Assembly (NCBI GenBank): GCA_963921275.4
Contig: OZ001293.3
Span: 5,728,001-5,792,000, forward strand
From: an uncultured Hormoscilla sp.
GTDB taxonomy: Bacteria; Cyanobacteriota; Cyanobacteriia; Cyanobacteriales; Desertifilaceae
Direction: 5' to 3'
DNA length: 64,000 nt
Shown here piece by piece: positions 7,403 to 45,945 of the stretch (positions are counted from its first letter, which is position 1; each line of letters begins with the position of its first letter). Position numbers and translations under genes: made by a program. Under the pieces are notes generated by a model, which worked only from the letters and a program-made list of their open reading frames with translations, did no database searches and had not been told where the DNA came from.

Positions 7403-8659
7403 ATGAAACTGGTCTGTAACCAAAGTGACCTGAGTACGAATCTATCGATCGTCTCCCGTGCGGTGCCCTCTCGCCCCACACAACCAATACTTGCCAAGGT
7501 GAGACTGCAAGCAGATGGTGCGAGTCAAGAAGTGAGCTTAACAGCGTTCGACCTCAGTCTAGGAATCTCAACTAGCTTTGATGCGCAGGTAGCAGAGTCG
7601 GGGGACATCGCCCTGCCTGCAAAATTGCTTTCGGACATCGTTTCCCGTCTGCCAGCAGGAGAGATATCCCTGGATCTGGAGACAGAAAAAGCAATAGTCT
7701 CCTTAACCCAAGCTTCCGGACGATATCAAGTCACGGGACAGGAGTCGGAAGAATTTCCGGAATTGCCAGTAGTAGAGGATGGGGAAGTTTTGACTCTGCC
7801 CACAGAAGCACTGAGATCCGGGTTGAACGGCTGTTTGTTTGCTGCGAGTACCGATGAAACCAAGCAAGTTCTCACGGGAGTACACTTGAAAATCTATGGT
7901 GATAGTCTGGAATTTGCGGCCACTGACGGACATCGTTTAGCTGTGGTCAAAACTGCTAATCAGCCGGCGGTGTCTGGAGCATGCTCTTGTCCTGAAGGAC
8001 GCGGCATGCTCCAGACACCGGAGTCGGAGTCGCAAGAGGAGTTGGAGTCGGAGTTGCAAGAGGAGTCGAAGCCGGAAGGGGACCAGCAGAGGACAGCAGA
8101 TGAAGCGTCTTTTGAGGTGACAGTACCCGCGAGAGCTTTACGGGAACTAGAGCGGATCGCGAACCAACAAAAGCAGGATAAGACAATTGCCCTGCATTTT
8201 GACCAGAAGCAAGTTGTGTTTGAGTTAAAAAACCAAAAACTGACTACGCGCACTCTGGAGGGGCAATATCCTCCCTATCAGCAGCTGATACCCAAGGAAT
8301 TCGAGCGACTGGCGACCGTGGATCGACGGCAACTAGTACAGGTCTTAGAGCGCATTGCCATTATCGCCGACCAGAAGAATCATCTGGTCAGGTTCAGCTT
8401 AGACAGGGACAGCCAGCAGCTGACTTTATCTGTGGAAACAGCTGATGTGGGCAGCGGGCAGGAGTCGATGGCAGCACGGATATCTGGAGAGAGCTTAGAG
8501 ATTGACTTTAATGTCAAGTATTTTTTGGAGGCAATCAAAGCTATGGGCTCCCAGGAACTGGAAATGCGGCTGAATGCAGACGATCAGCCCGTAATCCTCA
8601 CTCCCTTAGGAGGGATGCAGATGACCTGTTTGGTGATGCCAGTTAAAATTAGACCCTAA
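7403..8659 (+). CDS. dnaN: DNA polymerase III beta clamp
   Basis: ATDGHRL and LVMPV motifs, downstream of dnaA; in-frame palindrome at 7968-8020. Confidence 0.96.
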   Translation: MKLVCNQSDLSTNLSIVSRAVPSRPTQPILAKVRLQADGASQEVSLTAFDLSLGISTSFDAQVAESGDIALPAKLLSDIVSRLPAGEISLDLETEKAIVSLTQASGRYQVTGQESEEFPELPVVEDGEVLTLPTEALRSGLNGCLFAASTDETKQVLTGVHLKIYGDSLEFAATDGHRLAVVKTANQPAVSGACSCPEGRGMLQTPESESQEELESELQEESKPEGDQQRTADEASFEVTVPARALRELERIANQQKQDKTIALHFDQKQVVFELKNQKLTTRTLEGQYPPYQQLIPKEFERLATVDRRQLVQVLERIAIIADQKNHLVRFSLDRDSQQLTLSVETADVGSGQESMAARISGESLEIDFNVKYFLEAIKAMGSQELEMRLNADDQPVILTPLGGMQMTCLVMPVKIRP

Positions 8660-8702
8660 AGAAGGTATGATGAGTAGTTTTAGAGAGTTGAAGAGGAACT
8701 GA

Positions 8703-9437
8703 TTGACACCTGTGCGGAAAATAGTCATAGCTGGTAATTGGAAAATGTACAAAACCCAGGCAGAGGCCCTGGACTTTTGGCAGGTATTTATGCCTGAGCT
8801 GGATAAGACTCCGGCAGAACGGAATGTAGTACTCTGCGTGCCGTTTACGAACCTAGACCTGCTGTCGAAAAAAATCCAAGGTAGCCCGGTGCAGCTGGGG
8901 GCTCAGAATGTCCATTGGGAGTCTGAAGGCGCTTACACTGGGGAAATTTCTGCCTCGATGCTCAAAGAGATAGGGGTGCGCTATGTGATTATTGGTCACA
9001 GCGAACGGCGTCAGTATTTTGGGGAAACGGATGAAACTGTTAACCAGCGCCTGAAAGCAGCTCAGCAGTTCGGTCTGCTGCCCATTCTCTGTGTGGGTGA
9101 AACTAAGCAACAACCAGATGCTGAGGAAACGGAAACCCATATTTACTCCCAGTTGGATCGAGATCTGGTAGATGTAGATCAAAGTGCGTTGGTAATTGCC
9201 TACGAACCGATCTGGGCGATCGGGACTGGGGATACCTGTGAGGTATCGGAGGCTAACCGGGTGATTGGTTTAATTCGTTCTCGGTTGAGTAATCAGGATG
9301 TGCCGATTCAATACGGCGGCTCTGTCAAGCCTAACAATATCGATGCCATTATGGCTCAGCCAGAAATCGATGGTGTTTTGGTGGGAGGTGCTAGTCTGGA
9401 ACCTGGCAGTTTTGCCCGCATTGTCAATTATCAGTAG
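8703..9437 (+). CDS. tpiA: Triosephosphate isomerase
   Basis: [23 protein letters not shown] and YGGSV motifs. Confidence 0.97.
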
Positions 9438-9508
9438 ATTGTCATGCAGTGCGAACCTCGTTCCCAGGCTAAAGCCTGGGAACGAGAAATGGTTCATAGA
9501 TCGAAACA

Positions 9509-10483
9509 ATGAACAATGAACCCATGATAATTAGAGGGAAATTGTTTGAGTGGGGGGCGCGCACCTATCTGATGGGCATTCTGAATGTGACGCCTGATAG
9601 TTTCAGTGATGGTGGCGAGTTCTCAAGCATTAAAGCTGCGGTTATCCAAGCAAGGCGTATGGTAGCAGCTGGAGCTGATATAATTGATATTGGCGGTCAA
9701 TCAACTCGACCGGGTAGCAGTCAAATTACTCTACAACAAGAACTCGATCGGGTGTTACCTGCGATCGCGGCAATTCGCGAATGGCCAGATGAATGGGCAG
9801 TGTCTGGAGCATGCCTTGGTGTCTGGAGCGTGCCGAGTCCTTCAGGACAAGAGCACGCGGAAGACGCCAAAGTCCTTCAGGACAAGAGCATGCGGAAGAC
9901 GCTGGCAGAGGTGCCCATTTCCATTGACACGACTAGGGCCGAAGTGGCCGATCGGGCGATCGCCCTTGGTGCGGACATAGTCAATGACATTTCTGGCGGT
10001 ACTTTCGATCCAGATATGTTTTCTGTCGTTGCTCAAAAACAGGTTCCCACGATCTTGATGCATATCCGAGGAACGCCCCAGACTATGCAAAAAATGACTG
10101 ACTATGAAGATTTGATTGGCGAGATTTATGGGTTTCTGGAAGGTAGGATCGATGCAGCTGTGGAGGCGGGGATTTCGCGATCGCGCCTGATCGTAGACCC
10201 TGGGATTGGTTTTGCCAAAACTGGAGCGCAAAACCTAGAAATTTTCCGGCAAATGTCCAGATTTCGGACTTTAGGCGTTCCCATTTTAGTGGGGCCGTCC
10301 CGGAAAAGTTTCATCGGTCATCTGCTCGATCGCCCCACCGATCCGAAAGGGCGAGTCTGGGGTACAGCGGCAGCTTGCGTGGGTGCGATCGCCGGTGGGG
10401 CAGACATCTTGCGGGTGCATGACGTTGCCGAAATGCGGGATGTCTGCCGGGTCGCCGATGCCATTTTTGAGGCTAATTGTTGA
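9509..10483 (+). CDS. folP: Dihydropteroate synthase
   Basis: GILNVTPDSFSDGG, DPGIGF, SRKSF and RVHDV motifs; in-frame repeat insertion at ~9800-9902. Confidence 0.95.
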   Translation: MNNEPMIIRGKLFEWGARTYLMGILNVTPDSFSDGGEFSSIKAAVIQARRMVAAGADIIDIGGQSTRPGSSQITLQQELDRVLPAIAAIREWPDEWAVSGACLGVWSVPSPSGQEHAEDAKVLQDKSMRKTLAEVPISIDTTRAEVADRAIALGADIVNDISGGTFDPDMFSVVAQKQVPTILMHIRGTPQTMQKMTDYEDLIGEIYGFLEGRIDAAVEAGISRSRLIVDPGIGFAKTGAQNLEIFRQMSRFRTLGVPILVGPSRKSFIGHLLDRPTDPKGRVWGTAAACVGAIAGGADILRVHDVAEMRDVCRVADAIFEANC

Positions 10484-11750: not shown

Positions 11751-13894
11751 TGCATGGTCCGGCTACACAAACAAAGCCCACCGGCGCGGGCTTGATGACG
11801 GACACCGAAAGCTCTCCGGAGACATCGAAGCTATGCTCGACGTAAAAAAAGATGACCAAAATTGCTCTACTAATTCAACTACTTTTGAGCCGCACCCATC
11901 ACTTGACGGGACAAAATGTCTATGTCGTAAGGGCAATACGAGTAGTGCGCCCTTTAGGCATCTCAGCCGACTCTGGGCTTTCTCCCTAAATGGCGTTGGC
12001 CTCCAAAGTCGCAGCCTGCGATCGCGCCCCTTAACAATAGAAATATTTTATCCGGGAATAACTGAGTCATTTCCAAAGGTAACTATTCATTTCCAGGAGT
12101 AACTAAATCATTCCACCAAGTACGAGAGTCATTCGGTGGCGTCACAACCTTTGGCTTTGACGTGAGACAAGATTACCGAAGGACAGTTGAGTAACTCCAA
12201 GGCCGGAGTAAGCACCTCCAAGGCCAGAGTAAGCGCCTCCAAGGCCGGAGTAAGCACCTCCAAAGCCGGAGTAAAATCGGGGGTGTGGTCTTGCGCCCGT
12301 TGGTAAGTAGTTCGTAGTTCGACCTTGCGGGCTATATTACATGCATCATCGATGCACCCGGCTATCAACTATTTGTGACCGCACCCTTCTGAGGGCCCAA
12401 AACGTCACCGGTTACTACTTATCACCTGTGGCGAACTTGCTGTTCCCAATGAGGAACCAAAAAATGAAGTATAATTAATTTCTTCCCTAACAAAGCAGGA
12501 AATGCTACTATAGATAGCTAGAAACTTGCTTCCCTCAAGGTCGCCGGTGACCAACCCCTAAAAAAGTTCATCCCTTACATCAGAAGATATTATGGCGACA
12601 TTTAACGTAGACACAGCAGCAGAACTATCCGATGCCATTACCAATTCCGCGGGTAACGGTCAGGCAGATACCATTAACATCACGAGAGATATTACCCTGA
12701 CCGGGTTGCTACCCCTTATTGAAGAAGACGTCCAGCTCACGATAAATGGGAACGACAACACCATTGATGGCTCCGACCAACACCGGCTGTTCTTTGTCCT
12801 CGGCGGTACAGTCAATTTCAATGACCTGACCTTTAGCGACGGTCTGGCCCAGGGAGGCAATGGCGGCGGCGGGGCAGCAGGCATGGGCGGCGCCCTGTTT
12901 GTCTTTGACGGGACAGTCACGGTGACCGATAGCACTTTCCAGGATAATAGCGCCAGGGGTGGCAATGGCAGCACCATTGGAACGGGTGGTAATGCTAATT
13001 TCGTCACTCCTACTGGTAATAATGGCAGCGTCGGCGGCCAGGGCAACATCGGCGGCGGCCCCGGCGGCTTCGGCGGCGACGGCGGCGACGGCGGCCCCGG
13101 CGGCTTCGGCGGCGACGGCGGTTTCGGCGGCAACGGCGGCGTCGGCGGCGGCGGCAACGGCGGCACCGGCAGCGGCGGCGGCCTCGGCGGCTTCGGCGGC
13201 GGCGGCGGCAACGGCGGCACCGGCTTCGGCGGCAACGGCGGCTTCGGCGGCGGCGGCAACGGCGGCTTCGGCGGCGGCGGCAACGGCGGCACCGGCTTCG
13301 GCGGCAGCGGCGGCTTCGGCGGCGGCGGCGGCCAAACCGGCTTCGACCGCTTCGGCGGCGGCGGCGGCGGCGGCGCGGGCCTGGGCGGAGCCATATTCAT
13401 CCGCGAGGGCGAACTCAACGTTTTGAACAGCAGCTTTAACAATAATAACGCTCGAGGTGGCACTGGCGCGAACAACGGCAGAGGTCTGGGGGGCGCAATT
13501 TTCGCCCTGCACATCACCACCAATAGCAACGGAAACAACCAAGGCATGCCCATTAGCCTGCCGATTGTGACCCTCATGGATGTAACCTTCTCGGGCAATA
13601 GCGCCGCTGATAATAATATGGGAGGCCCCACTCCACCGTCCATCATGTTGGACACCATGCTAGACAGTGAAGACCTGTTCGGCAACCGATTCACTACTGT
13701 GAAAGTTCTTAACAACGAGGATTATCAGGCCTTAAGGGCTCTCTATCAAAGCACAGGTGGGGCTACATCTTGGAGGAACAATACAGGCTGGGCTAGCTGG
13801 AATTTCAACAGCCCAACTCCCCCCGTTGCTTCTGTTCTTAACGGTTGGCATGGAGTGACGGTAGCTAACGACAGGGTGATTTGGCTCTTCATGA

Positions 13895-14640
13895 ACTTCA
13901 ACCAACTGACTGGCAGCATCCCGACGGAGTTAGGGAATCTTTCCAATTTGGAGGAACTCCGGCTGAACTTTAACCAACTGACTGGCAGCATCCCGACGGA
14001 GTTAGGGAATCTTTCCAATTTGGAGGAACTCCGGCTGAACGACAACCAACTGACTGGCAGCATCCCGACGGAGTTAGGGAATCTTTCCAATTTGGACAAT
14101 CTCTTCCTATACTCCAACCGACTGACTGGCAGCATCCCGACGGAGTTAGGGAATCTTTCCAATTTGGCATCTCTCCGGCTGGACGACAACCAACTGACTG
14201 GCAGCATCCCGATGGAGTTAGGGAATCTTTCCAATTTGGAGTTTCTCTGGCTGAACGACAACCAACTGACTGGCAGCATCCCGACGGAGTTAGGGAATCT
14301 TTCCAATTTGGACAATCTCTGGCTGGACGACAACCAACTGACTGGCAGCATCCCGACGGAGTTAGGGAATCTTTCCAATTTGGAGTTTCTCCGGCTGAAC
14401 GACAACCAACTGACTGGCAGCATCCCGACGGAGTTAGGGAATCTTTTCAATTTGGACAATCTCTGGCTGAACGACAACCAACTGACTGGCAGCATCCCGA
14501 CGGAGTTAGGGAATCTTTCCAATTTAAACGATCTCTTCCTGTACTCCAACCAACTGACTGGCAGCATCCCGACGGAGTTAGGGAATCTTTCCAATTTGGA
14601 CAATCTCTGGCTGAACGACAACCAACTGACTGGCAGCATC
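13895..14640 (+). repeat. 72-bp coding LRR array (10 full units plus 1 partial)
   Basis: Repeated NQLTGSIPTELGNLSNL with a near-invariant nucleotide scaffold. Confidence 0.95.
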
Positions 14641-14730
14641 CTCCAAGAGGTCTTAGATTTGCCGGCTGACAAGCGATTGGAAAACCCCCCTTATGTAAAA
14701 ACCGAGATTCCCGACGACGAGTTCTTGCTA

Positions 14731-15602
14731 GGGCGTGTCATCAATTAAGCCATATTACAGCTGCCGCGAGGTAGATGGCACCCAAGAAATTGCGAGCCGT
14801 TTTATCGTAGCGTGTCGCCAGAGCCCTGTATTGCTTGAGTTTTTGGAATAGATTTTCAATTAGATGCCGCCACTTGTACATTTCTTCATCGTATTCTCTG
14901 TGTTCTGTGCGGTTACTTTTTGGAGGAATGACAGCCATCCAATCCGCCTCTTTCAGGCGCTCGAGCACACGTTGTTCCGCATCATAGGCTTTATCTGCAA
15001 GCAGCGCGCCAATCTCACCGATTTTATCCAATAGCACGTCAGCGCCTTTCCCGTCGTGGGCTTGGCCAGGGGTAAGATGAAATCCTGTGGGATTGCCTTG
15101 GGCAATCGCAAGTGGCATGAATCTTTGTCGATAGTCCCCCTTTACTACGGCCTATGGCTTGGGTTTCGCACGTATCTGAGGGTGTTTTTTTTTGCACCCG
15201 CACGCTCGTTGATGGGCACGCAGGATGGTGGCATCAATCGCGGCGTATTCGTTATCGGCGTCTGAGGCCAAGACATCGAATACCTGCTTCCAAACTCCCT
15301 TTTCAGACCAACGGTATGGCGGGTATGAACAACCCGAAAATCCCCAAAACACTCCGGTAAATCCCGCCAGGGAATGCCAGCACGATATCGATATAACACG
15401 GCAGAACACGAATAATCTATTGTTCTTGGCTGTAGCGCCTGGGTCACCCTCTTTACCAGGTAAAAGGTGTTCGATCCGTTCCCACTGGTCGTCTCGCAAG
15501 CCATAGCGTCTCATATCATGCCCTCTTGATTGTTATTGCTGGATAAGGACTCCATACCGTATCCATCTATTTCTGTCAAGCAATTTGATTGATGACACAC
15601 CC
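14731..15602 (-). mobile_element. IS5-family element (IS427-like), defective, copy 1
   Basis: TIRs GGGCGTGTCATCAAT / ATTGATGACACACCC, TA duplication, transposase motifs [14 protein letters not shown] and LATRYDKTA. Confidence 0.9.
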
Positions 15603-15819
15603 TAGGTGATAACCTCAACCTAGACATTAGCAACAACTTCGGCGACATCAATGACAACATCAACAACTACACAGCTACCGGTTTACCAGGGGGCGTAACC
15701 ATCAACTCTCAGGGAGTTATCAGCGGTACCCCTACTACCGCAGGCATCTTTACCGTTACAGTAACCGCCATCGACGCAGTGAGGAATCAAGGGACAGATA
15801 TCTTTGACATTGTTATAAA

Positions 15820-18800
15820 GAACTCCCCTCCTACCGATCTAGAACTCAGCAGCAGCAGCATTGATGAAAACTCCGCATCGGGTGCAGTCGTAGGGACTTT
15901 CTCAACTACCGACCCTGACATTGGAGATACCTTTACCTACCAGTTAGTCACAGGCGACGGTGCCGATGATAACGACGCCTTCACCATAGAAGGGAACTCA
16001 CTGCAAATTAACAGTTCCCCTGACTTTGAGACCCAGTCCAGTTACAGCATCCGCGTCCAGACTACTGACTCGACTGGGAACAGTTACTCGGAAGCCTTGA
16101 CTATTAGCGTCAACGATGTTCCCTCACCTCCGACCTCCATAGTCCTTAGCAACAGCAGCATTGATTCTAACTCCACATCGGGTGCAGTCGTAGGGACTTT
16201 CTCAACTACCGATCCTGACATTGGAGATACCTTTACCTACCAGTTAGTCACAGGCGACGGTGCCGATAATAACGACGCCTTCACGATAACAGGGAACTCA
16301 CTGCAAATTAACAGTTCCCCTGACTTTGAGACCCAGTCCAGTTACAGCATCCGCGTCCAGACTACCGACTCTGTTGGGGCCAGTTACTCAGAAGCCTTGA
16401 CTATTAGCGTCAACGATGTTTCCTCACCTCCGACCTCCATAGTCCTTAGCAACAGCAGCATTGATTCTAACTCCGCATCGGGTACAGTTGTAGGGACTTT
16501 CTCCACTACCGATTCTGACTCTTCCGATCCCTTTACCTACCAGTTAGTCACAGGCGACGGTGCCGATGATAACGACGCCTTCACCATAGAAGGGAACTCA
16601 CTGCAAATTAACAGTTCCCCTGACTTTGAGACCCAGTCCAGTTACAGCATCCGCGTCCAGACTACCGACTCTGCTAGTAACAGTTACTCGGAGACCTTGA
16701 CTATTAGCGTCAACGATGTTCCCTCACCTCCGACCTCCATAGTCCTTAGCAACAGCAGCATTGATTCTAACTCCTCTGATAATGCAGTCGTAGGGACTTT
16801 CTCAACTAGCGATCCTGACATTGGAGATACCTTTACCTACCAGTTAGTCACAGGCGACGGTGCCGATGATAACGACGCCTTCACCATAGAAGGGAACTCA
16901 CTGCAAATTAACAGTTCCCCTGACTTTGAGACCCAGTCCAGTTACAGCATCCGCGTCCAGACTACCGACTCTGCTAGTAACAGTTACTCAGAGGCCTTGA
17001 CTATTAGCGTCAACGATGTTCCCTCACCTCCGACCTCCATAGTCCTTAGCAACAGCAGCATTGATTCTAACTCCTCTGATAATGCAGTCGTAGGGACTTT
17101 CTCAACTAGCGATCCTGACATTGGAGATACCTTTACCTACCAGTTAGTCACAGGCGACGGTGCCGATGATAACGACGCCTTCACCATAGAAGGGAACTCA
17201 CTGCAAATTAACAGTTCCCCTGACTTTGAGACCCAGTCCAGTTACAGCATCCGCGTCCAGACTACTGACTCGACTGGGAACAGTTACTCGGAAGCCTTGA
17301 CTATTAGCGTCAACGATGTTCCCTCACCTCCGACCTCCATAGTCCTTAGCAACAGCAGCATTGATTCTAACTCCACATCGGGTGCAGTCGTAGGGACTTT
17401 CTCAACTACCGATCCTGACATTGGAGATACCTTTACCTACCAGTTAGTCACAGGCGACGGTGCCGATAATAACGACGCCTTCACGATAACAGGGAACTCA
17501 CTGCAAATTAACAGTTCCCCTGACTTTGAGACCCAGTCCAGTTACAGCATCCGCGTCCAGACTACCGACTCTGTTGGGGCCAGTTACTCAGAAGCCTTGA
17601 CTATTAGCGTCAACGATGTTCCCTCACCTCCGACCTCCATAGTCCTTAGCAACAGCAGCATTGATTCTAACTCCGCATCGGGTACAGTTGTAGGGACTTT
17701 CTCCACTACCGATTCTGACTCTTCCGATCCCTTTACCTACCAGTTAGTCACAGGCGACGGTGCCGATGATAACGACGCCTTCACCATAGAAGGGAACTCA
17801 CTGCAAATTAACAGTTCCCCTGACTTTGAGACCCAGTCCAGTTACAGCATCCGCGTCCAGACTACCGACTCTGCTAGTAACAGTTACTCGGAGACCTTGA
17901 CTATTAGCGTCAACGATGTTCCCTCACCTCCGACCTCCATAGTCCTTAGCAACAGCAGCATTGATTCTAACTCCTCTGATAATGCAGTCGTAGGGACTTT
18001 CTCAACTAGCGATCCTGACATTGGAGATACCTTTACCTACCAGTTAGTCACAGGCGACGGTGCCGATGATAACGACGCCTTCACCATAGAAGGGAACTCA
18101 CTGCAAATTAACAGTTCCCCTGACTTTGAGACCCAGTCCAGTTACAGCATCCGCGTCCAGACTACCGACTCTGCTAGTAACAGTTACTCAGAGGCCTTGA
18201 CTATTAGCGTCAACGATGTTCCCTCACCTCCGACCTCCATAGTCCTTAGCAACAGCAGCATTGATTCTAACTCCTCTGATAATGCAGTCGTAGGGACTTT
18301 CTCAACTAGCGATCCTGACATTGGAGATACCTTTACCTACCAGTTAGTCACAGGCGACGGTGCCGATGATAACGACGCCTTCACCATAGAAGGGAACTCA
18401 CTGCAAATTAACAGTTCCCCTGACTTTGAGACCCAGTCCAGTTACAGCATCCGCGTCCAGACTACCGACTCGACCGGGAACAGTTACTCGGAGACATTGA
18501 CTATTAGCGTCAACGATGTTCCCTCACCTCCGACCTCCATAGTCCTTAGCAACAGCAGCATTGATGAAAACTCCGCATCGGGTGCAGTCGTAGGGACTTT
18601 CTCAACTACCGATCCTGACATTGGAGATACCTTTACCTACCAGTTAGTCACAGGCGACGGTGCCGATGATAACGACGCCTTCACGATAACAGAAAACTCA
18701 CTGCAAATTAACAGTTCCCCTGACTTTGAGACCCAGTCCAGTTACAGCATCCGCGTCCAGACTACTGACTCGACTGGGAACAGTTACTCGGAAGCCTTGA

Positions 18801-21800: not shown

Positions 21801-22150
21801 AATGTGAACAATGTTGCTGAGTCTCCTACTGATATAGTTCTTAGTAATGGCAGCGTTAATTCTAATTCCCGTGTGGGTGCGATCGTGGGGACTTTCGGAA
21901 CTAGCGATCCCGACGGGGGAAATACTTTTACCTACGGGTTAATCTCGGGTTATGCGCTGCGCGCACGCTACGCGATTGGTGACGATGATAACGCTGCTTT
22001 CACTATAGTAGGGGACCAATTGCTAATTAATAGTTCTCCGGCTTTGGAGATGAGGTCGAGTTACAGCGTCCGCGTTCAGACTATTGACGTTACTGGGGCC
22101 AGTTACTCGGAGGCTTTGATTATTAATGTGAACTCAGTTGCCGAATCTTT
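15820..22150 (+). repeat. ~300-bp coding cadherin-like tandem repeats (~21 units)
   Basis: Repeated ENS..G.VVGTFSTTDPD..DFETQSSYSIRVQTTD. Confidence 0.95.
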
Positions 22151-22480
22151 TACTGACCTTAACTTCAGCAATACTCGTCAATCTTTAACTCTCAACCCCC
22201 AACCCCTAACTTTATCACTCTTTGAGAAGGAGGAGGAGGACACTCTGATCGGCGGGGAGGGAAGCGATCGCGTCTACGGAGGAGAGGACGCCGATCTTTT
22301 TGTCTTGGGGTCGGGCATGGGCTGGGATACTATCATAGACTTTGAAGATTACACGGACTTTATCAGGCTAGCAGGAGGTTCTCAGGGCCTCGATACCTGG
22401 ATTAATTTTGAATCGAAAACCATGGCCACCCTGCAGGGGATTGATGAGACCCTGATTAATGATGATTTCACTGTGGTTAA

Positions 22481-26818: not shown

Positions 26819-29680
26819 ATGGTAGATGAACCAGATTTTCAAGAGGCAGGCGATCGCCTGCCTCCCCAAAACATCCAAGCAGAGGAAGATATCTTAGGAG
26901 GCATTCTCCTGGACCCGGAAGCTATCGGTCGGGTGGCAGATATCCTGCGTCCAGAGGCTTTTTCTCTGCAAGCTCATCAGCGCCTCTATCGCTGCGCCCT
27001 CACTCTCCAGAATGAAGGCAAACCAACGGATCTGACGACTGTCACTACCTGGCTGTCTGACCAAAACTGGCTCGGGTCGGTAGGGGGGATGAGCAAGTTG
27101 GCTCAACTGGTGGACCGTACTGTCAGTGCTGTCAATATTGACGAGTACGCGAAACTGGTGATGGACAAGTACCTGCGTCGCCAGTTGATTCAAGCTGGTC
27201 ATGATATTGTCGGGCTGGGGTTTGAGACTTCTACAGAGTTAGAAGTTGTGATGGACCGGGCCGAACAGAAGATTTTCGACCTGCGGACGGATCGTTTCCA
27301 GCAGGGTCTAGTTCCCATCTCCAAAACCCTGGTCGGTGCTTTTCAAGAAATTGAAATCCAAAATCAGGGGACAGCTTTACCGGGTATTCCCTGCGGTTTC
27401 TATGACTTGGATGAACTCACTGGGGGTTTTCAACGTTCTGATTTGATTATTGTGGCGGGTAGACCGTCCATGGGAAAATGTTTGGCGTCTAATGCGGTTA
27501 TATTGCTGGCAACTGGCGAAGTGGCTACCATTGCCGAAATATATCAGCGGCGTCAAGCCCAATTGCTGACTCTCGGGGAAGATAGAAAATTTGGCATCAC
27601 TTCACCATCTGCTTTTGTGGATGATGGCATCAAGCCTGTATTTCGCGTTCAAACTCGACTGGGACGGGTGGTTGAAACGACAATTACTCATCCTTTCTTA
27701 ACTATTAATGGATGGCAGCAGCTTGGGAAACTTAAAAGGGGCGATCGCATTGCGGTTCCTCGCCAGCTGGAAATTTTTGGTACAGAATCTATCCCTGAAT
27801 GTAGAATTAAGTTGTTAGCATACCTAATTGGGGATGGTTGCCTCACAGGTGCTTCACCCCAGTTTACGAACGGCAACCCCCGACTGCAAAAAGATTTTGT
27901 TCAAGCTGTCTCTTTGTTGCCAGGGCTAAAAGTTACTTATCAAACTTCACAGGGTAGGCGCACGCCCAGCCTTTATGTTACAGCTGATTTAGAATTAATT
28001 GCGAAAAACCGACAGCTTTTTGGCAGTAGTCTGCGCACAATTCTGCAGTCCAAATCGATATCCAATAAAAAACTGGCTCAAGCGGTGGGAGTCAGTGGGT
28101 CTTTGGTGTGTCTGTGGCAGCAAGGAGGCTGCGTACCGAATCAAGAAACCTTTAGTCAGCTATGCGAGTTTCTGCAAGTAGATCCCGAAAAACTTGCGCC
28201 TCATGGACTTGCCGCAATTAGTAAAAACAGCAAAAATACCCTGACGCTTTGGTTACAAGAATTAGGTCTGTGGGGCAAGAAAGCACATACTAAGACTGTC
28301 CCTCCAGTTGTTTTTAAGTTGAGGCGATCGCAGCTTGCTCTCTTCCTCAACCGTCTGTTTTCTACCGATGGATGGGCGACAGTATATTCAAGCGGTCAGC
28401 TGTGTCCCTCCTTTTGTGCGAATAGCGCATGCGCTGCGCGCACGCTACGCGATCCCGGGGGACACAGGTCGCAGGTGGGATATGCTACAGCTAGCGAGCA
28501 ACTGGCACGACAGGTACAACATCTTTTACTCCGGTTTGGCATTATTGCAGCTCTGAAAAAAAGGTCGGTTAAATACAAAGATACCCGCAAGCGTGCTTGG
28601 CAGCTAAATATTACTGACTCGAAATCAATCAGAACTTTTATCTGTGAAATTGGTATTTTTGGTAAGGAAGAGAACTTGTCCTTAGTGCAAGCAGCTTTAG
28701 CAGAGAGTCCGATGTGCGATGCGCGCGCTATACATGCACAGTGCAAAGAACATCGGGCTGGAATTAGGGGATACAGCAATATTCATGTTGGCAAACGGGC
28801 TTTATCGCGAGAGAGACTTCTAACATTGGCAAGGGCTTTAGATAATTGGCCCTTACAACAGTTAGCTACTTCTGATGTATGCTGGGATAAAATTGTCTCT
28901 ATAGTACCGGTTGGCTGGCAGCAGGTGTATGATTTGACGATTCCTGAGACGCACAATTTCGTTGCTAATGATATTTGCGTTCATAATACTAGCTTTGTTC
29001 TCAATATTGCTCGCTCTATTGCTGCCAAGCCAAAGCTGCCGATCGCTATCTTTAGTCTGGAAATGTCCTGCGAACAGTTGGTGATGCGTTTGCTATCTAG
29101 TGAGGCGAATATTGAAAGTAATCGCTTGCGATCGGGCCGCATCACTCAACTGGAGTGGGAACCTTTAAGTACTGCCCTGAGTACTCTCTCTGATTTGCCA
29201 ATTTTTATCGATGATACTCCTAATCAAACAGTAAGTCAGATGCGATCGCAAGCCCGCCGCTTGCAAGCCGAACAGGGTGGTGTTTTGGGTTTAATTTTGA
29301 TCGATTACTTGCAACTCATGGAAGGCGCTAGTGATAATCGAGTACAGGAGTTATCCCGCATTACCCGTCAACTCAAAGGTTTGGCCCGATCGCTGAATGT
29401 CCCTGTGATTACCCTTTCCCAGCTGTCTCGCGGTGTCGAATCTCGCAATAATAAACGCCCGATGATGTCTGATTTAAGGGAGTCTGGATCGATCGAGCAA
29501 GATAGCGATCTAATTTTGATGCTATATCGTGATGAATATTATAATCCTGATACCCCCGATCGCAACATTGCCGAAGTGATTATTACCAAACATCGCAATG
29601 GTCCCACTGGGATGGTAAAGCTATTGTTTGAGTCAAATCTGACTCGCTTTCGTAACCTCGCCCCTCGCGATCGTTCTTAA
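26819..29680 (+). CDS. dnaB: Replicative helicase DnaB with intein
   Basis: PPQNIQAE, GRPSMGK|T, IDYLQL and LRESGSIEQD motifs; likely start MVDEPDF. Confidence 0.96.
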   Translation: MVDEPDFQEAGDRLPPQNIQAEEDILGGILLDPEAIGRVADILRPEAFSLQAHQRLYRCALTLQNEGKPTDLTTVTTWLSDQNWLGSVGGMSKLAQLVDRTVSAVNIDEYAKLVMDKYLRRQLIQAGHDIVGLGFETSTELEVVMDRAEQKIFDLRTDRFQQGLVPISKTLVGAFQEIEIQNQGTALPGIPCGFYDLDELTGGFQRSDLIIVAGRPSMGKCLASNAVILLATGEVATIAEIYQRRQAQLLTLGEDRKFGITSPSAFVDDGIKPVFRVQTRLGRVVETTITHPFLTINGWQQLGKLKRGDRIAVPRQLEIFGTESIPECRIKLLAYLIGDGCLTGASPQFTNGNPRLQKDFVQAVSLLPGLKVTYQTSQGRRTPSLYVTADLELIAKNRQLFGSSLRTILQSKSISNKKLAQAVGVSGSLVCLWQQGGCVPNQETFSQLCEFLQVDPEKLAPHGLAAISKNSKNTLTLWLQELGLWGKKAHTKTVPPVVFKLRRSQLALFLNRLFSTDGWATVYSSGQLCPSFCANSACAARTLRDPGGHRSQVGYATASEQLARQVQHLLLRFGIIAALKKRSVKYKDTRKRAWQLNITDSKSIRTFICEIGIFGKEENLSLVQAALAESPMCDARAIHAQCKEHRAGIRGYSNIHVGKRALSRERLLTLARALDNWPLQQLATSDVCWDKIVSIVPVGWQQVYDLTIPETHNFVANDICVHNTSFVLNIARSIAAKPKLPIAIFSLEMSCEQLVMRLLSSEANIESNRLRSGRITQLEWEPLSTALSTLSDLPIFIDDTPNQTVSQMRSQARRLQAEQGGVLGLILIDYLQLMEGASDNRVQELSRITRQLKGLARSLNVPVITLSQLSRGVESRNNKRPMMSDLRESGSIEQDSDLILMLYRDEYYNPDTPDRNIAEVIITKHRNGPTGMVKLLFESNLTRFRNLAPRDRS
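27479..28987 (+). mobile_element. 503-aa intein in the DnaB P-loop with LAGLIDADG endonuclease motifs
   Basis: GK|CL...VYDLTIPETHNFVANDICVHN|T; block B TITHPF; LAYLIGDG and LFSTDG motifs. Confidence 0.93.
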
Positions 29681-32889: not shown

Positions 32890-34341
32890 TTAAGTTTGCA
32901 TCTTCGCCAAGGCAATTTGCCCCAGCAGTTCCCGGTTTACCTTACCCTGCCCATTGCGGGGTAAGCTGTCTACGGCGACCCAATGTTTAGGGCGTTTGTA
33001 CTTGCTTAATTTATCGGCGATCGCCCTTTGTAGCCGATCGATAGAAACGTGATCGGACTTGGGGACGTAGACAACTGTGACTACTTCACCCCATTGGACA
33101 TCAGGTAACCCGATCGCGCAGACATCACTCACCAACTCGGTTGCTAGCAATGCTGCTTCGACTTCAGCGGGAAAGACATTCTTTCCTCCGGTGATGATTT
33201 TGTGACTCTGACGTCCGACAATGTGCAAGTAACCCTGAGGATCGAAATAACCTATGTCATCCGTTCCCATGGAGAAGGCGGCCGATTGGGTTTCGATGTC
33301 TCCGCCATAGTAACCTAATGTTAGGGACTCAGCATCTATGGCGATCGCCCCAGTCTGGTTAACGTCCAGTCTTTCTCCATCCGGGCCAGTTATGGTAACT
33401 TGAGCATGGGGCAAAACCCGACCGCAACTGTTATTACCAGCCAGAAAATCTGCGGGTTTAAGAGTGACTATCCCAGATGCAGTTTCGGTCATCCCGTAGG
33501 TAAGGGCTAAGGGAATATTGTAGTTTCTAGCAGTTGACAGCAGAGAGTCCCAAGCAGGGGCCCCCCCCAAGAGAACAGTTTCAAACCGAGATAACCAACT
33601 ACTATGTTTTTCTAGCAATCTTTGCAGCTGGGTGGGTACGAGAGAAATAAAGAAATTAGTTACATCATTATTGCCGTCACCCGGGATCGACTTAAATGGC
33701 CGAATTACTAGCTTCCCGCCGGTAGTAAAGGAACGCAGGCACTGCATTAAGCCGCTGACGTGATCTAGGGGTAAGACACAGAAAGAATTAATCGCCGTTT
33801 TCCCAAAATACTGTTGAAATCCTTTCACAGATGCCATCAAGGTTTCCCAAGTATGGATGGCAAAGCGAATCTTTCCAGATGAACCCCCCGTGGGAATCAT
33901 GATTTGCACGGCTGGCGCCGCGCTGCCGCGAATGCGCTGCGCGCACGCTACGCGAACAGAAATCAGATCATTTTCAAAGCCCGCGCAGGCGGGCTTCGTT
34001 CCTGTAGCCCCACCCTTTAGGGTAGGGGTGGGGAATGGAAAAGAAGGTGGTTGTCCTAAGATTAGGTCGGGTTGAACGAGGTAAAATACTTGCTGCCATT
34101 CTTGTTCCACCCAATGGGGGTTACATAAAAAAACGGGACAATTAGCTGCCACCGCAGCAATGAACCCAGCTATAAATTTAACAGGTTCTGCTTCAGCTAG
34201 TAGAATAACAGGTGGTTTATCCTGCTGGGCGAATTTCTCGAATAACTCCTGACTTAGCTGAGTGAATTGGTGAGAGTTATCACTTATCAACCAATGATCG
34301 ACCAGACGCTTTTGCCACAGTTCCTTTAATGATTGTCCCAT
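32890..34341 (-). CDS. menE: o-succinylbenzoate-CoA ligase
   Basis: TGGSSG, YGMTET and IITGG.NVFP.EVE motifs; in-frame repeat inserts at ~33908-34032. Confidence 0.9.
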   Translation of the reverse strand: MGQSLKELWQKRLVDHWLISDNSHQFTQLSQELFEKFAQQDKPPVILLAEAEPVKFIAGFIAAVAANCPVFLCNPHWVEQEWQQVFYLVQPDLILGQPPSFPFPTPTLKGGATGTKPACAGFENDLISVRVACAQRIRGSAAPAVQIMIPTGGSSGKIRFAIHTWETLMASVKGFQQYFGKTAINSFCVLPLDHVSGLMQCLRSFTTGGKLVIRPFKSIPGDGNNDVTNFFISLVPTQLQRLLEKHSSWLSRFETVLLGGAPAWDSLLSTARNYNIPLALTYGMTETASGIVTLKPADFLAGNNSCGRVLPHAQVTITGPDGERLDVNQTGAIAIDAESLTLGYYGGDIETQSAAFSMGTDDIGYFDPQGYLHIVGRQSHKIITGGKNVFPAEVEAALLATELVSDVCAIGLPDVQWGEVVTVVYVPKSDHVSIDRLQRAIADKLSKYKRPKHWVAVDSLPRNGQGKVNRELLGQIALAKMQT

Positions 34342-35447
34342 AACTCTTTTAGCCAGTTGTTCTCATTCTCGGTAAACCATTGCTTGACGCCAAAACCAAC
34401 GGCTCTTTGATGTCTCCGGAGAGCGCTAGAAGCACTACTCCCGATGTGCGAATGCGCTGCGCGCACGCTGCGCGGACGCACATCTTCGGCGTCTTCCGCA
34501 TGCTCTTGTCCTGAAGGACGCGGCATGCTCCAGACACCGCGAAGACATCGATTACCTGTTTGTAGTTCGGCGGCTAGCTTTAAGGCCGCATTTCTGCCAA
34601 TGGCGGTTTCCATCACAGAGGAGAATACAATGTCGAGCGGGTGCGATCGGCAAAACTGACGCAAGCGGGATGGCGAACCCGCGATCGCCGCTTTAATTAC
34701 AAATATGGATCGCCAACCTCGATGATAACAGGTTTCGAGGCGATCGAGAGTTGCCACCGATTCATCTAAGGCGATGGGAGTAGCATACTGTTCAGACAAT
34801 TCTTGCATCTCTTCAAACTTTTCTACTCCTAGGGGTTGTTCCATAAATTCTACAGCTTTACCTTCACAAGCATCTAGCCACTGACAAGCTTCTTCCCAGG
34901 TAAGTCCACCATTAGCATCCAAGCGCAATTTTGTCCCCAGCGGCAGTTCTTTTCTCAGTAAGCCAAATATTTTCAGTTCTTCAGCAATGGGAATAACGCC
35001 TATTTTCCACTTAAATGTCCGATATCCCTGATGCCAGAAACCTAGCCATGACTGCAAACTTTCTGGTCCAGCTGGTAACAAGCAGCTATAGGTAAGACTG
35101 TCCTCCTGTAAGCCCGCGCAGGCTGGCTTCGTTCCTGTAGCCCCACCTGTTAGGGTGGGGGTCTCAAAGCCAAACTGACAGGCAGGTAAATCATCAGGGA
35201 TTGCCTTAATGATATCGGATGTTATTTCTGATGGCAAATCAGAGCAGAATGAGTGGCTTTGTTCGCAAGTTTCCGAACCAAACCAGGGTAAAGGGGCAAT
35301 TTCTCCCCAACCGACTTTCCCAGTTGCATCCGTGAGGCGAATAATGATGCCTTGGCGGACATTCCAGCTGCCGTGACTGGTAGTAAGCGATCGCCTAAAT
35401 TTTCGCTGGTAGGGACGAAACTCAAATTGGTAAGCTCCAGCCATCAT
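34326..35447 (-). CDS. menC: o-succinylbenzoate synthase
   Basis: GEIAPLP, FKWKIG, LRLDANGG, EQP and ALDES motifs; in-frame inserts. Confidence 0.9.
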   Translation of the reverse strand: MMAGAYQFEFRPYQRKFRRSLTTSHGSWNVRQGIIIRLTDATGKVGWGEIAPLPWFGSETCEQSHSFCSDLPSEITSDIIKAIPDDLPACQFGFETPTLTGGATGTKPACAGLQEDSLTYSCLLPAGPESLQSWLGFWHQGYRTFKWKIGVIPIAEELKIFGLLRKELPLGTKLRLDANGGLTWEEACQWLDACEGKAVEFMEQPLGVEKFEEMQELSEQYATPIALDESVATLDRLETCYHRGWRSIFVIKAAIAGSPSRLRQFCRSHPLDIVFSSVMETAIGRNAALKLAAELQTGNRCLRGVWSMPRPSGQEHAEDAEDVRPRSVRAAHSHIGSSASSALRRHQRAVGFGVKQWFTENENNWLKELWDNH

Positions 35448-40926: not shown

Positions 40927-42501
40927 GTGAGAAATATAACTTCACAAAACTTTACCTTATCGGCCCAGATGAGAGTCACCTCCGAGCACGGGAATATATT
41001 TTCAGAACCAAAGGTTCTGGAAAATTTTCTGTTAGGTTGTCAAGAAACAGCTATTGCTAAAGATAGTACAATGATTGTCAGCATATCGCAAGAGATTCCC
41101 CTAGTGGACCCCCTGGCGATAATGGCAGCGATCGCCCCTTCGGAGCGACTGCAGTTTTACTGGGAAAGCGCAGGGGAGGCGATCGCTGCCATTGATGCTG
41201 CCACAAGTATAAAGATAACCCAGGCCGATCGATTCAGAAAAGCCCAAGAATTTATTCATACATGTCTGGCAAATACGATTAGCATTGGCGATCTAGATCG
41301 CCGGTTTGCTGGCCCGCATTTTTTTTGCAGTTTCACATTTTTTGGACAGCAGTCGGAGTCAGTTTTTCCAGCAGCAACAGTGTTTTTACCACGTTTACAG
41401 GTAGCTTGTAGCGCCAAACATTGTATCTTAGTGACGAATTTAGCGATCAGTCTAGGAGCGGACATTAAAAGCATATGCTCAAAGTTATGGTGGGACTGGC
41501 ATAAAATTAGTTTATGCAATAATAACGGATTCCATAAAGCCGCAGGAAATAAATTGCCAAGTGGACAATTATCAGATTACTGTGTCCCTCGGGTAGTGCA
41601 ACTAGCGCTCCCGGGGGACACAGAAGATAAATTCAAGCAGGCGGTGGGTGAAGCATTAGAGTTGATTCGCTCGGAAAGATTGAGTAAAATAGTGATCGCC
41701 CATGGGATCGAGATCCAAGCTAAAGTACCATTTGGGGAGAGAGAAGCGCTGCATAATTTACGCCAGCTCCATGGAGATTGCCATATATTTATGGTAAGTA
41801 ATGGTGAAGGAAAGAGTTTTATCGGGGCGACGCCAGAAAGGTTAATGAGGATTCGGTGTGTTCCGGACAGTGCGATGAGCGCGCTGTGTCCCTCGAGTAG
41901 TGCGACTAGCGCTCCCGGGGGACACAGTTCCGGGACAGAGAATCAGCAGCTATTCACAGAGGCATTAGCCGGTTCAGCACCTCGGGGAAAAACGAGAAGG
42001 GAAGATGCAGATTTTGCCAATAGTTTACTCGCTAGCGAAAAAGAAAGACGGGAACACCAATTTGTGATAGATTATATTAAAGGATGTTTATGGAGGTTGG
42101 GTTTAAGGCCGGAAATATTGCCAATGCCAAAGTTACGAAAACTAGCGAATATCCAACATTTGTGGACCCCGATCGAGGCAAAAGTGCCTCCAGGAGTGCA
42201 TCCTTTGTCAATACTGGCAGCATTGCATCCGACGCCAGCGGTGGCGGGTACGCCCAGAGAAATAGCCTGCCAGGAAATACCTAGGTATGAAAGCTTCGAT
42301 CGGGGTTTATATGCCGCGCCCTTGGGTTGGGTAGATGGACGCGGAAATAGCGAGTTTGTGGTAGGAATTAGGTCAGCGCTGATAGAGGGCGATCGGGCGA
42401 CAGTTTATGCGGGTGCGGGTATAGTAGCCGGTTCCGATCCGGAGAAAGAACTGGCAGAAATTCAGCTGAAATTTCAAGCATTGTTGCAAGCGTTAGTATA
42501 A
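40927..42501 (+). CDS. menF: Isochorismate synthase
   Basis: FIGATPERL, ALAGS, KERREH, LHPTPAVAG and YAGAGIV motifs; start uncertain; two in-frame palindromes. Confidence 0.92.
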   Translation: MRNITSQNFTLSAQMRVTSEHGNIFSEPKVLENFLLGCQETAIAKDSTMIVSISQEIPLVDPLAIMAAIAPSERLQFYWESAGEAIAAIDAATSIKITQADRFRKAQEFIHTCLANTISIGDLDRRFAGPHFFCSFTFFGQQSESVFPAATVFLPRLQVACSAKHCILVTNLAISLGADIKSICSKLWWDWHKISLCNNNGFHKAAGNKLPSGQLSDYCVPRVVQLALPGDTEDKFKQAVGEALELIRSERLSKIVIAHGIEIQAKVPFGEREALHNLRQLHGDCHIFMVSNGEGKSFIGATPERLMRIRCVPDSAMSALCPSSSATSAPGGHSSGTENQQLFTEALAGSAPRGKTRREDADFANSLLASEKERREHQFVIDYIKGCLWRLGLRPEILPMPKLRKLANIQHLWTPIEAKVPPGVHPLSILAALHPTPAVAGTPREIACQEIPRYESFDRGLYAAPLGWVDGRGNSEFVVGIRSALIEGDRATVYAGAGIVAGSDPEKELAEIQLKFQALLQALV

Positions 42502-43559: not shown

Positions 43560-44088
43560 GGGTTTATTCATCTCATAACGTTACATATTCAGCCTTGTCC
43601 TCAAATGGTTGCTGGATATAGTTGGTAACTTTTTACTCCTATCCAGTCAAAACCAGGGCGGTTTGACGAGAGGAACTGTACTGGTATTATACAGCATGGG
43701 TCAGGGAAAAGGCAATAGAAATGGTGAGCGGTACAGCTTAAACTATCGATGGGCACCCTACTAACTGGATTAAGCAATTCAAAATTCTTTCTTCAAAATT
43801 AAAAATGGGGAAACAATTTGAGAACAAGAGTCTCAGGTTTTATCTATATGCAATTTAAATGCGCGACAGCTTAAAAGCTGGTGGAAAAACTACTTTTACT
43901 CGGGATTTTTGCAGATATTTATTGATTCTCCTACTAAGTAGATGTAGCTGGACAAGAGAGGAACTGGGATTATACAGCATGGGTCAGGGAAAAGGTAAGG
44001 AAGAACAAGGGACAAGTTAAGAGGTCATAATTCGCAGGAATTACAAACTGGTTTTAACCGCTGAGGAACAACATCTATAAGTAAGAAA

Positions 44089-45945
44089 ATGCTCTTATTC
44101 CGCAATGTAAATTTAGTTTGGGCTTCAATTTTAGCAGAAACATTAAAGCGACTGGGATTGAAAACGGCGATCGCCTGTCCGGGTTCGCGCTCAACCCCCC
44201 TGACGGTAGCTTTTGCCCAAAACCCCCAAATCGAAGCTATTCCAGTGTTGGACGAACGTTCAGCGGCCTTTTTTGCCCTAGGAATTGCCAAGGGAACGGG
44301 ATTGCCAGTAGCATTGGTTTGTACTTCGGGAACGGCGGGTGCGAACTTTTATCCAGCAGCGATCGAGGCACGAGAAAGTCGAGTACCTCTATTGATTTTA
44401 ACAGCTGATCGCCCTCCGGAACTGCGGAACTGCCATGCCGGACAGGCGATCGACCAAGTAAAATTATATGGCAATTACCCGAACTGGCAAGCCGAGTTAG
44501 CATTGCCATCATTAGAAATGGAAATGTTAGCATATCTGCGACAAACAGTAATTCATGCCTGGGAATGTACCCTGTTTCCTACCCCTGGGGTAGTCCATCT
44601 GAATGTACCATTTCGCGACCCCCTCGCCCCCATCCCACAACCAGAAGCAGAAGCATTAAAATCCGAGTTTTCCGAAGTTGATTTCTTCACAGGAATAGCC
44701 AACATCGATCCAACTCTTTTGCCCGCGCAGGCGGGCTTTGTTCCTGTAGCCCCACCCTTGAGGGTGGGGGTGGCTGCGTGCACAGGGCTACGCCTACGCG
44801 ATCGGGGCATAATTATTGCTGGGGTAGCGCAACCGAGGTGGGCGAAAGAGTATGTTTTGGCGATCGCCCATCTTTCGGAAGCATTAAAGTTCCCGGTATT
44901 AGCAGAAGGACTCTCACCTGTGAGGAACTACGCCCATCTGAATCCTAATATAATTTCCACCTACGACATCATTCTGAGAAATGAACAGTTAGCAGAAAAA
45001 CTCGCCCCAGAAATTGTCATCCAGATTGGAAATTTTCCCACCAGCAAGCAACTCCGGGCCTGGTTAACAGGGAAAAAGCCGCCAACTTGGGTCATAGACC
45101 CCAGTCATCACAACCTGGACCCCATTCATGGTCAAGCAATTCACCTGCGCACATCCATAGAAAATCTTTGTGCTACAATTGAGTCAGGTCAGATGGAGAC
45201 TTCCCCTTACCTGGAAGAATGGTCTGATGCGGAAAAGAAGGTGAGAGAGTCCTTAGACCCAACCCTGGCAGAGATAGATTATTTATTTGAAGGCAAAGCA
45301 GCATGGTTACTATCCCAGACCTTGCCCCCAGGAACGCCGATATTTATTGCCAACAGCATGCCAGTCAGGGATGTCGAATATTTCTGGAAACCAAACAACC
45401 TGGAAATCCAACCCTTCTTCAACCGGGGTGCCAATGGCATTGACGGCAGCTTATCTACCGCTTTGGGGATTGCCCATTCGATGTCTCCTGGAAGCGCTAC
45501 ATGCGCTGCGCGCACCGGGCTACGCCTGCGCGATCGCACTACCCAGGAGACATCTCGGCATCAACCCTGTGTTATGCTAACGGGAGACTTGGCCTTATTG
45601 CACGATAGCAATGGTTTTTTGCTCTCGAATAAACTTGTGGGACATTTGACCATAATCTTGATTAATAATCGAGGAGGTGGTATATTTGAGATGCTGCCCA
45701 TCTCCCAATTCGATCCGCCCTTTGAAGAGTTCTTTGCTACGCCCCAGGAGATTGACTTTGCCCAGCTATGTCCTGCTTATAATGTAGAATATGAATTGAT
45801 TGCAGGGTGGGAACAGCTGCAGGAAAGGTTAAATCCATTACCGGAAACAGGGAGGCGGGTGTTAGAGTTGCGGACTTCTAGAAAGGCAGATGCTAAGTGG
45901 CGTAAGGAGAATTTGGAGAAGTTGGCAGCGATGTCTCCGGAGTAG
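44089..45945 (+). CDS. menD: SEPHCHC synthase
   Basis: PGSRSTPL, DERSAAFFALG, TSGTA, NRGANGIDG and GDLALLHD motifs; two in-frame inserts. Confidence 0.95.
   Translation: MLLFRNVNLVWASILAETLKRLGLKTAIACPGSRSTPLTVAFAQNPQIEAIPVLDERSAAFFALGIAKGTGLPVALVCTSGTAGANFYPAAIEARESRVPLLILTADRPPELRNCHAGQAIDQVKLYGNYPNWQAELALPSLEMEMLAYLRQTVIHAWECTLFPTPGVVHLNVPFRDPLAPIPQPEAEALKSEFSEVDFFTGIANIDPTLLPAQAGFVPVAPPLRVGVAACTGLRLRDRGIIIAGVAQPRWAKEYVLAIAHLSEALKFPVLAEGLSPVRNYAHLNPNIISTYDIILRNEQLAEKLAPEIVIQIGNFPTSKQLRAWLTGKKPPTWVIDPSHHNLDPIHGQAIHLRTSIENLCATIESGQMETSPYLEEWSDAEKKVRESLDPTLAEIDYLFEGKAAWLLSQTLPPGTPIFIANSMPVRDVEYFWKPNNLEIQPFFNRGANGIDGSLSTALGIAHSMSPGSATCAARTGLRLRDRTTQETSRHQPCVMLTGDLALLHDSNGFLLSNKLVGHLTIILINNRGGGIFEMLPISQFDPPFEEFFATPQEIDFAQLCPAYNVEYELIAGWEQLQERLNPLPETGRRVLELRTSRKADAKWRKENLEKLAAMSPE

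Follow-up and report, generated by a model that had tools for sequence, protein, structure and literature searches.

The short dispersed repeats (SDRs) of Nostoc are elements of 21-27 nucleotides (nt) that can be nested in copies of their own kind, and an RNA intermediate has been proposed for them. SDR-like repeats are reported in Nostocaceae only (PMC5861425), and SDR5 sits inside the HIP1 word, between bases 3 and 4 (PMC4390886). In-frame palindromes are described for Rickettsia, where the Rickettsia palindromic elements (RPEs) are about 105-150 bp long, occur in 44 copies, lie within open reading frames (ORFs) in nearly half of the cases and carry a conserved peptide (PMC10969869, PMC3184786). 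Intragenic repetitive extragenic palindromes (REPs) occur in many bacteria and are thought to be neutral in linkers or loops (PMC3733652). Here we analyse a 64,000-nt stretch of the genome of an uncultured Hormoscilla sp. (contig OZ001293.3, positions 5,728,001 to 5,792,000; hereafter, the window), in which short palindromic elements lie in frame inside dnaN, folP, the intein of dnaB, menE, menC, menF and menD. Probably, these are selfish hairpin inserts that are filtered by selection and tolerated in proteins. We observed that the insertions are polymorphic among congeners, that they nest in one another, that the families of 15-24 nt have a target on their CGA side, that copies in genes are filtered for frame and stop codons, and that the host genes are under purifying selection.

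Element families and the frame and stop filter

The window is part of the main contig (G000:C1; 6.88 Mb, 47% GC, 4738 HIP1 sites) of a cyanobacterial genome, G000, that is 96.7% complete. Empty sites were taken from four congeners, G001-G004, with about 85-98% DNA identity at the window genes. The congener DNA compared amounted to about 1.4 of 6.9 Mb for G004, 0.45 of 5.0 Mb for G003 (an assembly of 570 contigs), 0.1 Mb for G002 and 0.06 Mb for G001, so that the samples of junctions are small (73 + 18 rows). An anchored comparison over about 1.9 Mb of congener DNA gave 1313 indels: there were peaks at 15, 22 and 24 nt, hairpins of 42-54 nt with a high GC content, and lengths that are sums of these. 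The corresponding young families are A15, B22, C24, D24, H45, I54 and L42. When 12 family patterns were run on the genome, about 1900 hits were found: 308 for the 15-nt elements, 85 and 220 for the two 24-nt families, 136 for the 22-nt family, 65 for C variants, 317 for the 45-nt and 51 for the 42-nt elements, 126 for the 54-nt core, 254 for family K and 336 for family G (in these two families one copy sometimes accounts for two hits), and 15 and 2 for the others. The reversed genome, used as a control, gave 0 hits for each pattern. Copies matching the C24 pattern number 161 in G000, 59 in G004, 56 in G003, 47 in G002, 4 in G001 and 0 in G005, with one each in 4 of 296 other genomes.

Insertion of the 15-24-nt families takes place after CGA, in most cases CCGA: in 73 pairs of a filled and an empty site from these small families, the empty tetramer was CCGA in 38, CTGA in 7, GCGA in 7 and TCGA in 4, and no target-site duplication was found at element junctions. 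The 42-45-nt hairpins consist of a 42-nt core plus three bases, and positions at the base of the stem are often changed towards pairing (18 rows). Element ends and net lengths are highly constant. Ordinary inserts of 102-121 nt, resembling MITEs (miniature transposable elements with inverted repeats) and some of them with 6-8-nt direct repeats, occur separately.

Most copies are intergenic, and a single element can be read in different frames and on different strands in different genes. Pattern hits fall in 268 of 3553 called genes of at least 100 codons and in 188 of 1491 of at least 300 codons. The preliminary description spoke of insertions into many housekeeping proteins; this holds for the window, with its 7-8 host genes (7 plus menE), and is partly a window effect, the mean being 2.5 host genes per 64 kb with a maximum of 10. 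When 60 of 209 hosts, picked from host-dense stretches, were scanned, 9 passed curated cut-offs (CoaBC, ClpP, MetK, PheT, AspS, Mfd, HisC, CobN and LpdA) and 44 had no match at E<=1e-70.

For the selection tests, which covered families other than I54, each copy was removed in silico and the site was scored as coding or not with a dicodon gene model of our own; counts of isolated copies leave out those less than 40 nt from another element. By this model, 51-55% of unoccupied targets are coding. Isolated copies were coding in 76 of 191 and 29 of 95 cases for the 15-nt elements, in 52 of 155 (C24) and 14 of 59 (the other family) for the 24-nt elements, and in 48 of 221 and 10 of 54 for the 45-nt elements. 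The frameshifting 22-nt family was coding in only 8 of 86 (p=2e-5 versus C24, whose target is similar), and five of these eight copies lie at most 36 codons from the stop of the gene. Frames bearing a stop were seen in 1 of 48 coding H45 copies versus 26% expected (p=1e-5), in 2 of 52 C24 copies versus 17% (p=0.004) and in none of 10 copies of the H45 variant versus 27%; four families have few stop frames and are uninformative here. From this avoidance of stops we infer that ribosomes read through the inserts, which are thus likely to be translated as extra amino acids. Finally, the length of polymorphic element indels (those of 10-200 nt with at most 3 flanking mismatches) was a multiple of three (3n) in 44 of 47 cases within coding DNA and in 22 of 36 outside it (p=6e-4). 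Since the non-coding share is itself above one third (p=6e-4), a bias towards 3n belongs to the elements as such, in and out of genes, and host filtering is therefore not the whole cause; selection for 3n length would also have acted at the level of the element. There was no enrichment of inserts near protein ends (16% versus 16%), and their flanks are less hydrophobic than a background not matched by gene class (0.293 versus 0.348).

In the window itself, NCBIfam names, ORFs and alignments bear out the earlier statement that repeats lie inside all seven genes and that every frame stays open (Table 1). All four congeners have empty or partly filled sites. In DNA alignments with G001-G004, the net lengths are +54 in dnaN, +108 in folP, +69 in the dnaB intein (24 in 45), +48 in menE, +48 and +84 in menF (versus G001), and +27 and +78 in menD. 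All length differences of G000 at the insert sites are 3n; G002 additionally shows single-base indels here and there, with the appearance of read errors. The outer 54 nt of the folP insert are present alone in G002, and the 3' block of menC measures 5 nt in G001, 50 in G004, 71 in G003, 83 in G002 and 149 in G000. The K repeats are older: G000 shares them with G002-G004, and in MenD the K repeat takes the place of a linker that varied already, without making it longer. A different repeat occupies the K sites of menE and menC in G001. The first menF insert was bridged without differences by contigs of two public runs, which are possibly the source samples. As for folding, none of 200 shuffles was as stable as the natural sequence for 9 of 10 young-family stretches; the dnaB stretch had 1 of 200 and the K stretch 11 of 200. 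The peptides said to be shared, TGTKPACAG by MenE and MenC and PSGQEHAEDA by FolP and MenC, are present where claimed, and predicted insert peptides include SPGSATCAAR and PSPSGQEHAEDAK. The positions given previously stood overall, with two corrections: the folP insert ends at 9907, and the segments taken as single at 33908-34032 (menE) and 44721-44804 (menD) are two separate events each. Two further observations concern the window: a 12-nt insert in menE (33290-33304) resembles an H45 element reduced to its 3' arm and tail, and another in-frame C24 copy lies at 21953-21974 in the ORF 21792-22484.

Table 1. Host genes of the window (named from NCBIfam) and the elements inserted in them
Feature	Host, residues	Position	Strand	Remarks
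Host gene	dnaN	7403..8659	+	
I54 (54-nt hairpin element)	dnaN, 188-206	7966..8019	+	Loop already longer in this genus
Host gene	folP	9509..10483	+	
I54 nested in I54 (108 nt)	folP, 98-133	9800..9907	+	Between helix 75-91 and strand 137-141
Host gene	dnaB with intein	26819..29680	+	Start from gene model
C24 (24 nt) nested in 45-nt H45-variant hairpin	DnaB intein, 569-592	28399..28467	+	
Host gene	menE	32890..34341	-	
Two 24-nt elements (48 nt)	menE, 129-144	33910..33957	-	Directly before P-loop motif; none in G001-G004
Family K GTAG-type REP	menE	33975..34031	-	Older; peptide TGTKPACAG; approximate ends
Host gene	menC	34326..35444	-	Start from gene model
144-nt nest: H45 outer; inside, I54 and short hairpin holding C24	menC	34408..34551	-	Past last aligned barrel helix
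Family K REP	menC, 95-113	35108..35162	-	Poorly aligned pre-barrel stretch; approximate ends
Host gene	menF	40927..42501	+	
H45 hairpin	menF, 218-233	41580..41625	+	Common to G002-G004; not in G001
84-nt nest (H45 inside second hairpin)	menF, 310-338	41855..41938	+	Between TPERL and FTEALAGS blocks; not in G001
Host gene	menD	44089..45945	+	
Family K REP	menD, 211-230	44719..44776	+	Forms the inter-domain linker; approximate ends
27-nt C-family variant	menD	44777..44803	+	Added in same linker as K REP; not in G002, G004
78-nt nest (33-nt C variant in H45)	menD, 464-489	45477..45554	+	Helix-strand turn

Candidate movers

The proposed mechanism starts from several families of non-coding hairpins of 15-54 bases that would insert at short targets without duplication, into genes and into each other; copies in genes would persist almost only when in frame and free of stops, and those retained would be translated as neutral extra loops. 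Copying may proceed through RNA, by the many group II intron reverse transcriptases (RTs) of the genome. Such an RT is our leading guess for the mover of the young families, although a tentative one. RT matches (PF00078) number 77 in G000, 41 in G004, 7 in G003, 2 in G001 and 2 in G005, and roughly follow the element load. Within six bases of the junctions of the 73 filled/empty pairs, 49 of 438 positions are mismatched on the side of the CGA, versus 20 of 438 on the opposite side; at positions -2 to -6 of the CGA side, 36 were observed versus 22.4 expected from unoccupied sites (p=0.005), at which CG is hypermutable. This suggests that a few bases of the donor flank are carried along on one side, as by target-primed reverse transcription or by asymmetric repair. 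The junctions vary by one base, and enzymes of the group II intron RT type are reported to switch template in vitro via one base pair (10.1101/792986). A bolder proposal, possible but rather doubtful, is that the young families are micro-retroelements: RNA hairpins of 15-54 bases pasted by group II intron RTs at a self-propagating target of 3-4 bases, with lengths that evolved towards 3n because this opens coding DNA, and which would be rewriting about 1 in 8 large proteins of this genus with nested loops.

Some points speak against an RT. Its link with element load is drawn from five related genomes, and G003 does not follow the pattern, unless introns were collapsed in its assembly of 570 contigs. 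The excess of mismatches on one side is modest and post hoc, with multi-hit tracts in 4 of 73 pairs (p=0.04), and asymmetric co-conversion arises in DNA repair too (PMC2504315). In other tests of the mover, a 3' pattern for half-elements matched 6 sites, too few to be informative, and group II introns showed no excess of elements, with 14 of 996 lying inside an intron and 3 next to one. That 20 of 22 changes go towards the consensus was discounted as evidence, as target ascertainment yields that direction. A tyrosine recombinase, as used by integron cassettes, was rejected as mover: PF00589 had 0 matches at E<=1e-8 in G000, G001 and G004, and 14 of 14 control genomes were positive. IS110 (PF02371), a further possible mover, has 4 matches in G000, in frames of 79-264 amino acids, and 0 in G001. 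Two public runs with shares of 0.47 and 0.23 held no usable strain polymorphism.

Another possibility, which we hold to be rather unlikely, is that no dedicated enzyme is involved, and that a hairpin from another locus is picked up, by short-homology strand invasion and template switching, when the host repairs a break at a CGA/CGATCG (HIP1-like) site. The one-sided mismatches and the homogenised stem bases would suit such a process, as would the abundance of HIP1 sites in this genome and the link made between SDR5 insertion within HIP1 and directed cutting (PMC4390886). However, the constancy of element ends and net lengths argues against it, most targets are CCGA and not HIP1, and the elements are abundant in one genus only while HIP1 is widespread.

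It is unlikely that the same selfish elements travel as single-stranded, folded DNA, moved in trans by a Y1 HUH transposase of the IS200 type or of the type of the RAYTs (tyrosine transposases associated with REPs). The hairpins are imperfect and one strand folds better than the other (-18.9 versus -14.9 kcal/mol), insertion without target duplication occurs 3' of a fixed short word, GTAG is found in C24, B22 and H45, and family K does flank a Y1 gene. However, the young families flank none of the Y1 loci read (7 loci; 13 stretches), where each recognisable gene has another repeat of its own or none, and both Y1 genes of G000 look decayed, one of them being frameshifted versus G001, yet it is in G000 that element copies are most numerous. 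No leading/lagging (replichore) bias was found either, in a test that is weak as there are no clear replichores.

Family K is another matter, and the repeats comprise at least two unrelated systems. K is present in 25 of 121 genomes of the order, 33 of its 254 hits lie in coding sequences, and GTAG precedes its hairpin on the 5' side. Copies of K in inverted orientation lie to either side of a Y1 HUH gene at G000:C1:241783-242256, K also flanks the split ortholog of this gene in G003, and TGTKPACAG is therefore a translated REP peptide. The HUH motif of this gene reads QDH in G000 and DHVH, in an interrupted gene, in G003; no ortholog was found in G001, G002 or G004. Its motifs WQ and Y---Q-HH are those of subclass 1.2, which is tabulated without REPs in PMC6006769. 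K is a separate, older REP system, likely to have been spread at one time by the RAYT transposase that it flanks. The surrounding region, G000:C1:241580-242700, holds the decayed gene between inverted K repeats and also a tandem K array; the other Y1 genes of the genus each lie in a different repeat family.

On G000:C1 we counted 451 group II intron 5' motifs, and for at least 299 of them a matching 3' end, in most cases at about 0.9 kb. In the window, dnaA (4229-6096) is split by such an intron that holds a second, inverted one (~4320-5188); both dnaA pieces change frame once, perhaps through assembly errors. In G004 only, dnaN has a group II intron of 2426 nt with an apparent RT frame at gene base 175.

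Host genes and inserted peptides

The segments are not in the orthologs, and the host genes are under purifying selection, in agreement with the preliminary description. With G002 and the second menD-like copy of G004 left out, the pooled dN/dS of host bodies was 0.294 versus G004 (45 genes) and 0.285 versus G003 (23 genes), and that of non-host genes 0.255 (323) and 0.288 (136). All eight window genes tested had values of 0.12-0.34 versus G001, and dN/dS was significantly below 1 versus both G003 and G004 for dnaN, folP, dnaB, menF and menD. Invariant columns were all kept in MenD (135/135, among 23 orthologs of other genera) and FolP (74/74, among 22). The element codons had a dN/dS of 0.98, on 124 and 83 codons, as would be expected if the inserts were neutral. 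The extra amino acids are thus likely to be tolerated passengers in surface loops, and not new functions. Of the earlier phrase, a source of new protein loops filtered by selection, in-frame insertion and the filter stand, on three tests; the loops are new in the literal sense only, as no function is evident with an element dN/dS of about 1.

The structure models asked for in the preliminary description place the inserts of MenD and FolP in loops predicted to be disordered and at the surface. In the AlphaFold2 model of MenD (pTM 0.79), residues 209-229 fall in the domain linker and 465-489 between helix 450-462 and strand 494-498, with pLDDT below 50; in that of FolP (pTM 0.85), residues 98-109 fall between helix 75-91 and strand 137-141. 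The low confidence at the inserts comes in part from a lack of rows in the alignment at these places. When DnaN, MenC, MenE and MenF were aligned to solved structures, the alignments were broken or came to an end close to the inserts. As the second MenD site varies in length by at most 1 residue in 29 orthologs, tolerance is not confined to variable linkers. In distant genera, the same FolP loop has an unrelated insert of about 50 amino acids (G025), and the same MenD linker has other repeats (G029).

Some results go against neutral, filtered passengers. The neutrality estimate rests on 15 and 13 substitutions only. MenC differs from its G004 and G003 orthologs by 20 and 18 amino-acid but 7 and 4 silent changes (dN/dS 0.86 and 1.24), which suggests recently relaxed or diversifying selection. 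Net frameshifts were found in 7 of 45 host genes versus G004 and 3 of 23 versus G003; for the other genes the counts were 23 of 323 and 14 of 136. The gene finder is crude (51-56% coding) and missed menE and most of menF, so that gene counts are approximate.

It is improbable that the inserts are adaptive, that is, new functional loops for proteins or mRNAs. The 84-nt menF insert and the K sites are common to four species and the FolP loop of G025 has its unrelated insert, which would favour it; against this, element codons evolve at a dN/dS of 0.98, one element is read in several frames and strands, copies are mostly intergenic, and inserts keep accumulating inside older ones. Quite improbable, too, is that the hosts are genes in decay, or genes that a symbiont can do without, and that their open frames are incidental: genome-wide dN/dS is high (0.25-0.29), menC is near or above neutrality versus close kin and menE not significantly below 1, yet the five genes named above versus G003 and G004, and all eight versus G001, are constrained, invariant residues are kept, and avoidance of stops and frameshifts requires translation. 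Very improbable is removal of the hairpins from RNA, or their being skipped, leaving proteins without inserts: strong folding and a genome rich in splicing factors would favour it, but length and stops would then not matter, yet both are filtered, and no Rfam intron match was found at the insert sites.

Other features of the genome include a second, broken partial menD copy (G000:C1:1636798-1637504), with extra menD pieces also in G002, G003 and G004; a 2007-amino-acid ORF with 300-nt repeats (window 15779-21802) and a 718-amino-acid ORF with 9- and 72-nt repeats (12592-14748); an extra G at window position 38024 carried at full depth by contigs of two public runs, which makes a window assembly error probable; and a 31-kb contig (G000:C3) of 17.6% GC that is unlike the rest of the genome and possibly foreign.

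Relation to known systems

A literature search of partial texts returned no description of these families, and neither did a term search of the main text of one Hormoscilla genome paper (PMC6520454). The present analysis contributes selection tests with controls, an estimate of neutrality, the link of K to a RAYT and the RT lead. The elements amount to a natural genome-wide experiment on insertion tolerance with built-in controls (22 versus 24 nt, stop versus no stop, filled versus empty sister alleles). It shows how far selection alone can make selfish DNA look protein-designed, and maps permissive loops of essential enzymes, including a MenD turn that is length-invariant elsewhere. Moreover, with families that are young and abundant and whose empty sites are known, the mover of RPE- or SDR-like repeats becomes testable in a heterologous host.

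The preliminary description had likened the repeats to RPEs and to the Nostoc repeats. The behaviour is indeed alike; on the tests run, in which the RPE and SDR1-8 sequences were compared by description only, the elements belong to neither. No Rfam match was found at the insert sites. Like RPEs, they are palindromes that sit in frame within conserved genes of unrelated kinds, in a bacterium associated with a host, and have no known mover. They differ in that the units are 15-54 nt long, with about 1900 pattern hits and some 268 host genes, are read in several frames and on both strands, nest, and are polymorphic among congeners. Family K resembles REP/RAYT systems in the GTAG before its hairpin, the inverted flanking of a Y1 gene, its patchy presence in cyanobacteria and the translation of some copies; in contrast, the gene flanked by K is of subclass 1.2 and decayed in G000, and the young families flank no Y1 gene read. 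With MITEs the young elements have in common that they are non-autonomous, with inverted ends and filled and empty sites, but they lack target duplication, are GC-rich and are far smaller. The SDRs are likewise cyanobacterial micro-repeats that nest and insert precisely at a HIP1-like word, and the CG^A/CGA^ register of the junctions seen here fits SDR5. However, the target here is mostly CCGA (38/73), with GCGA in 7/73, which is unlike the placement of SDR5 inside HIP1, and of the sizes, 22, 24 and 27 nt are within the SDR range given at the outset while 15, 42-45 and 54 nt are not. The young families work like RPEs and SDRs, and are known in kind from the RPEs of Rickettsia, intragenic REPs and the SDRs of Nostoc.

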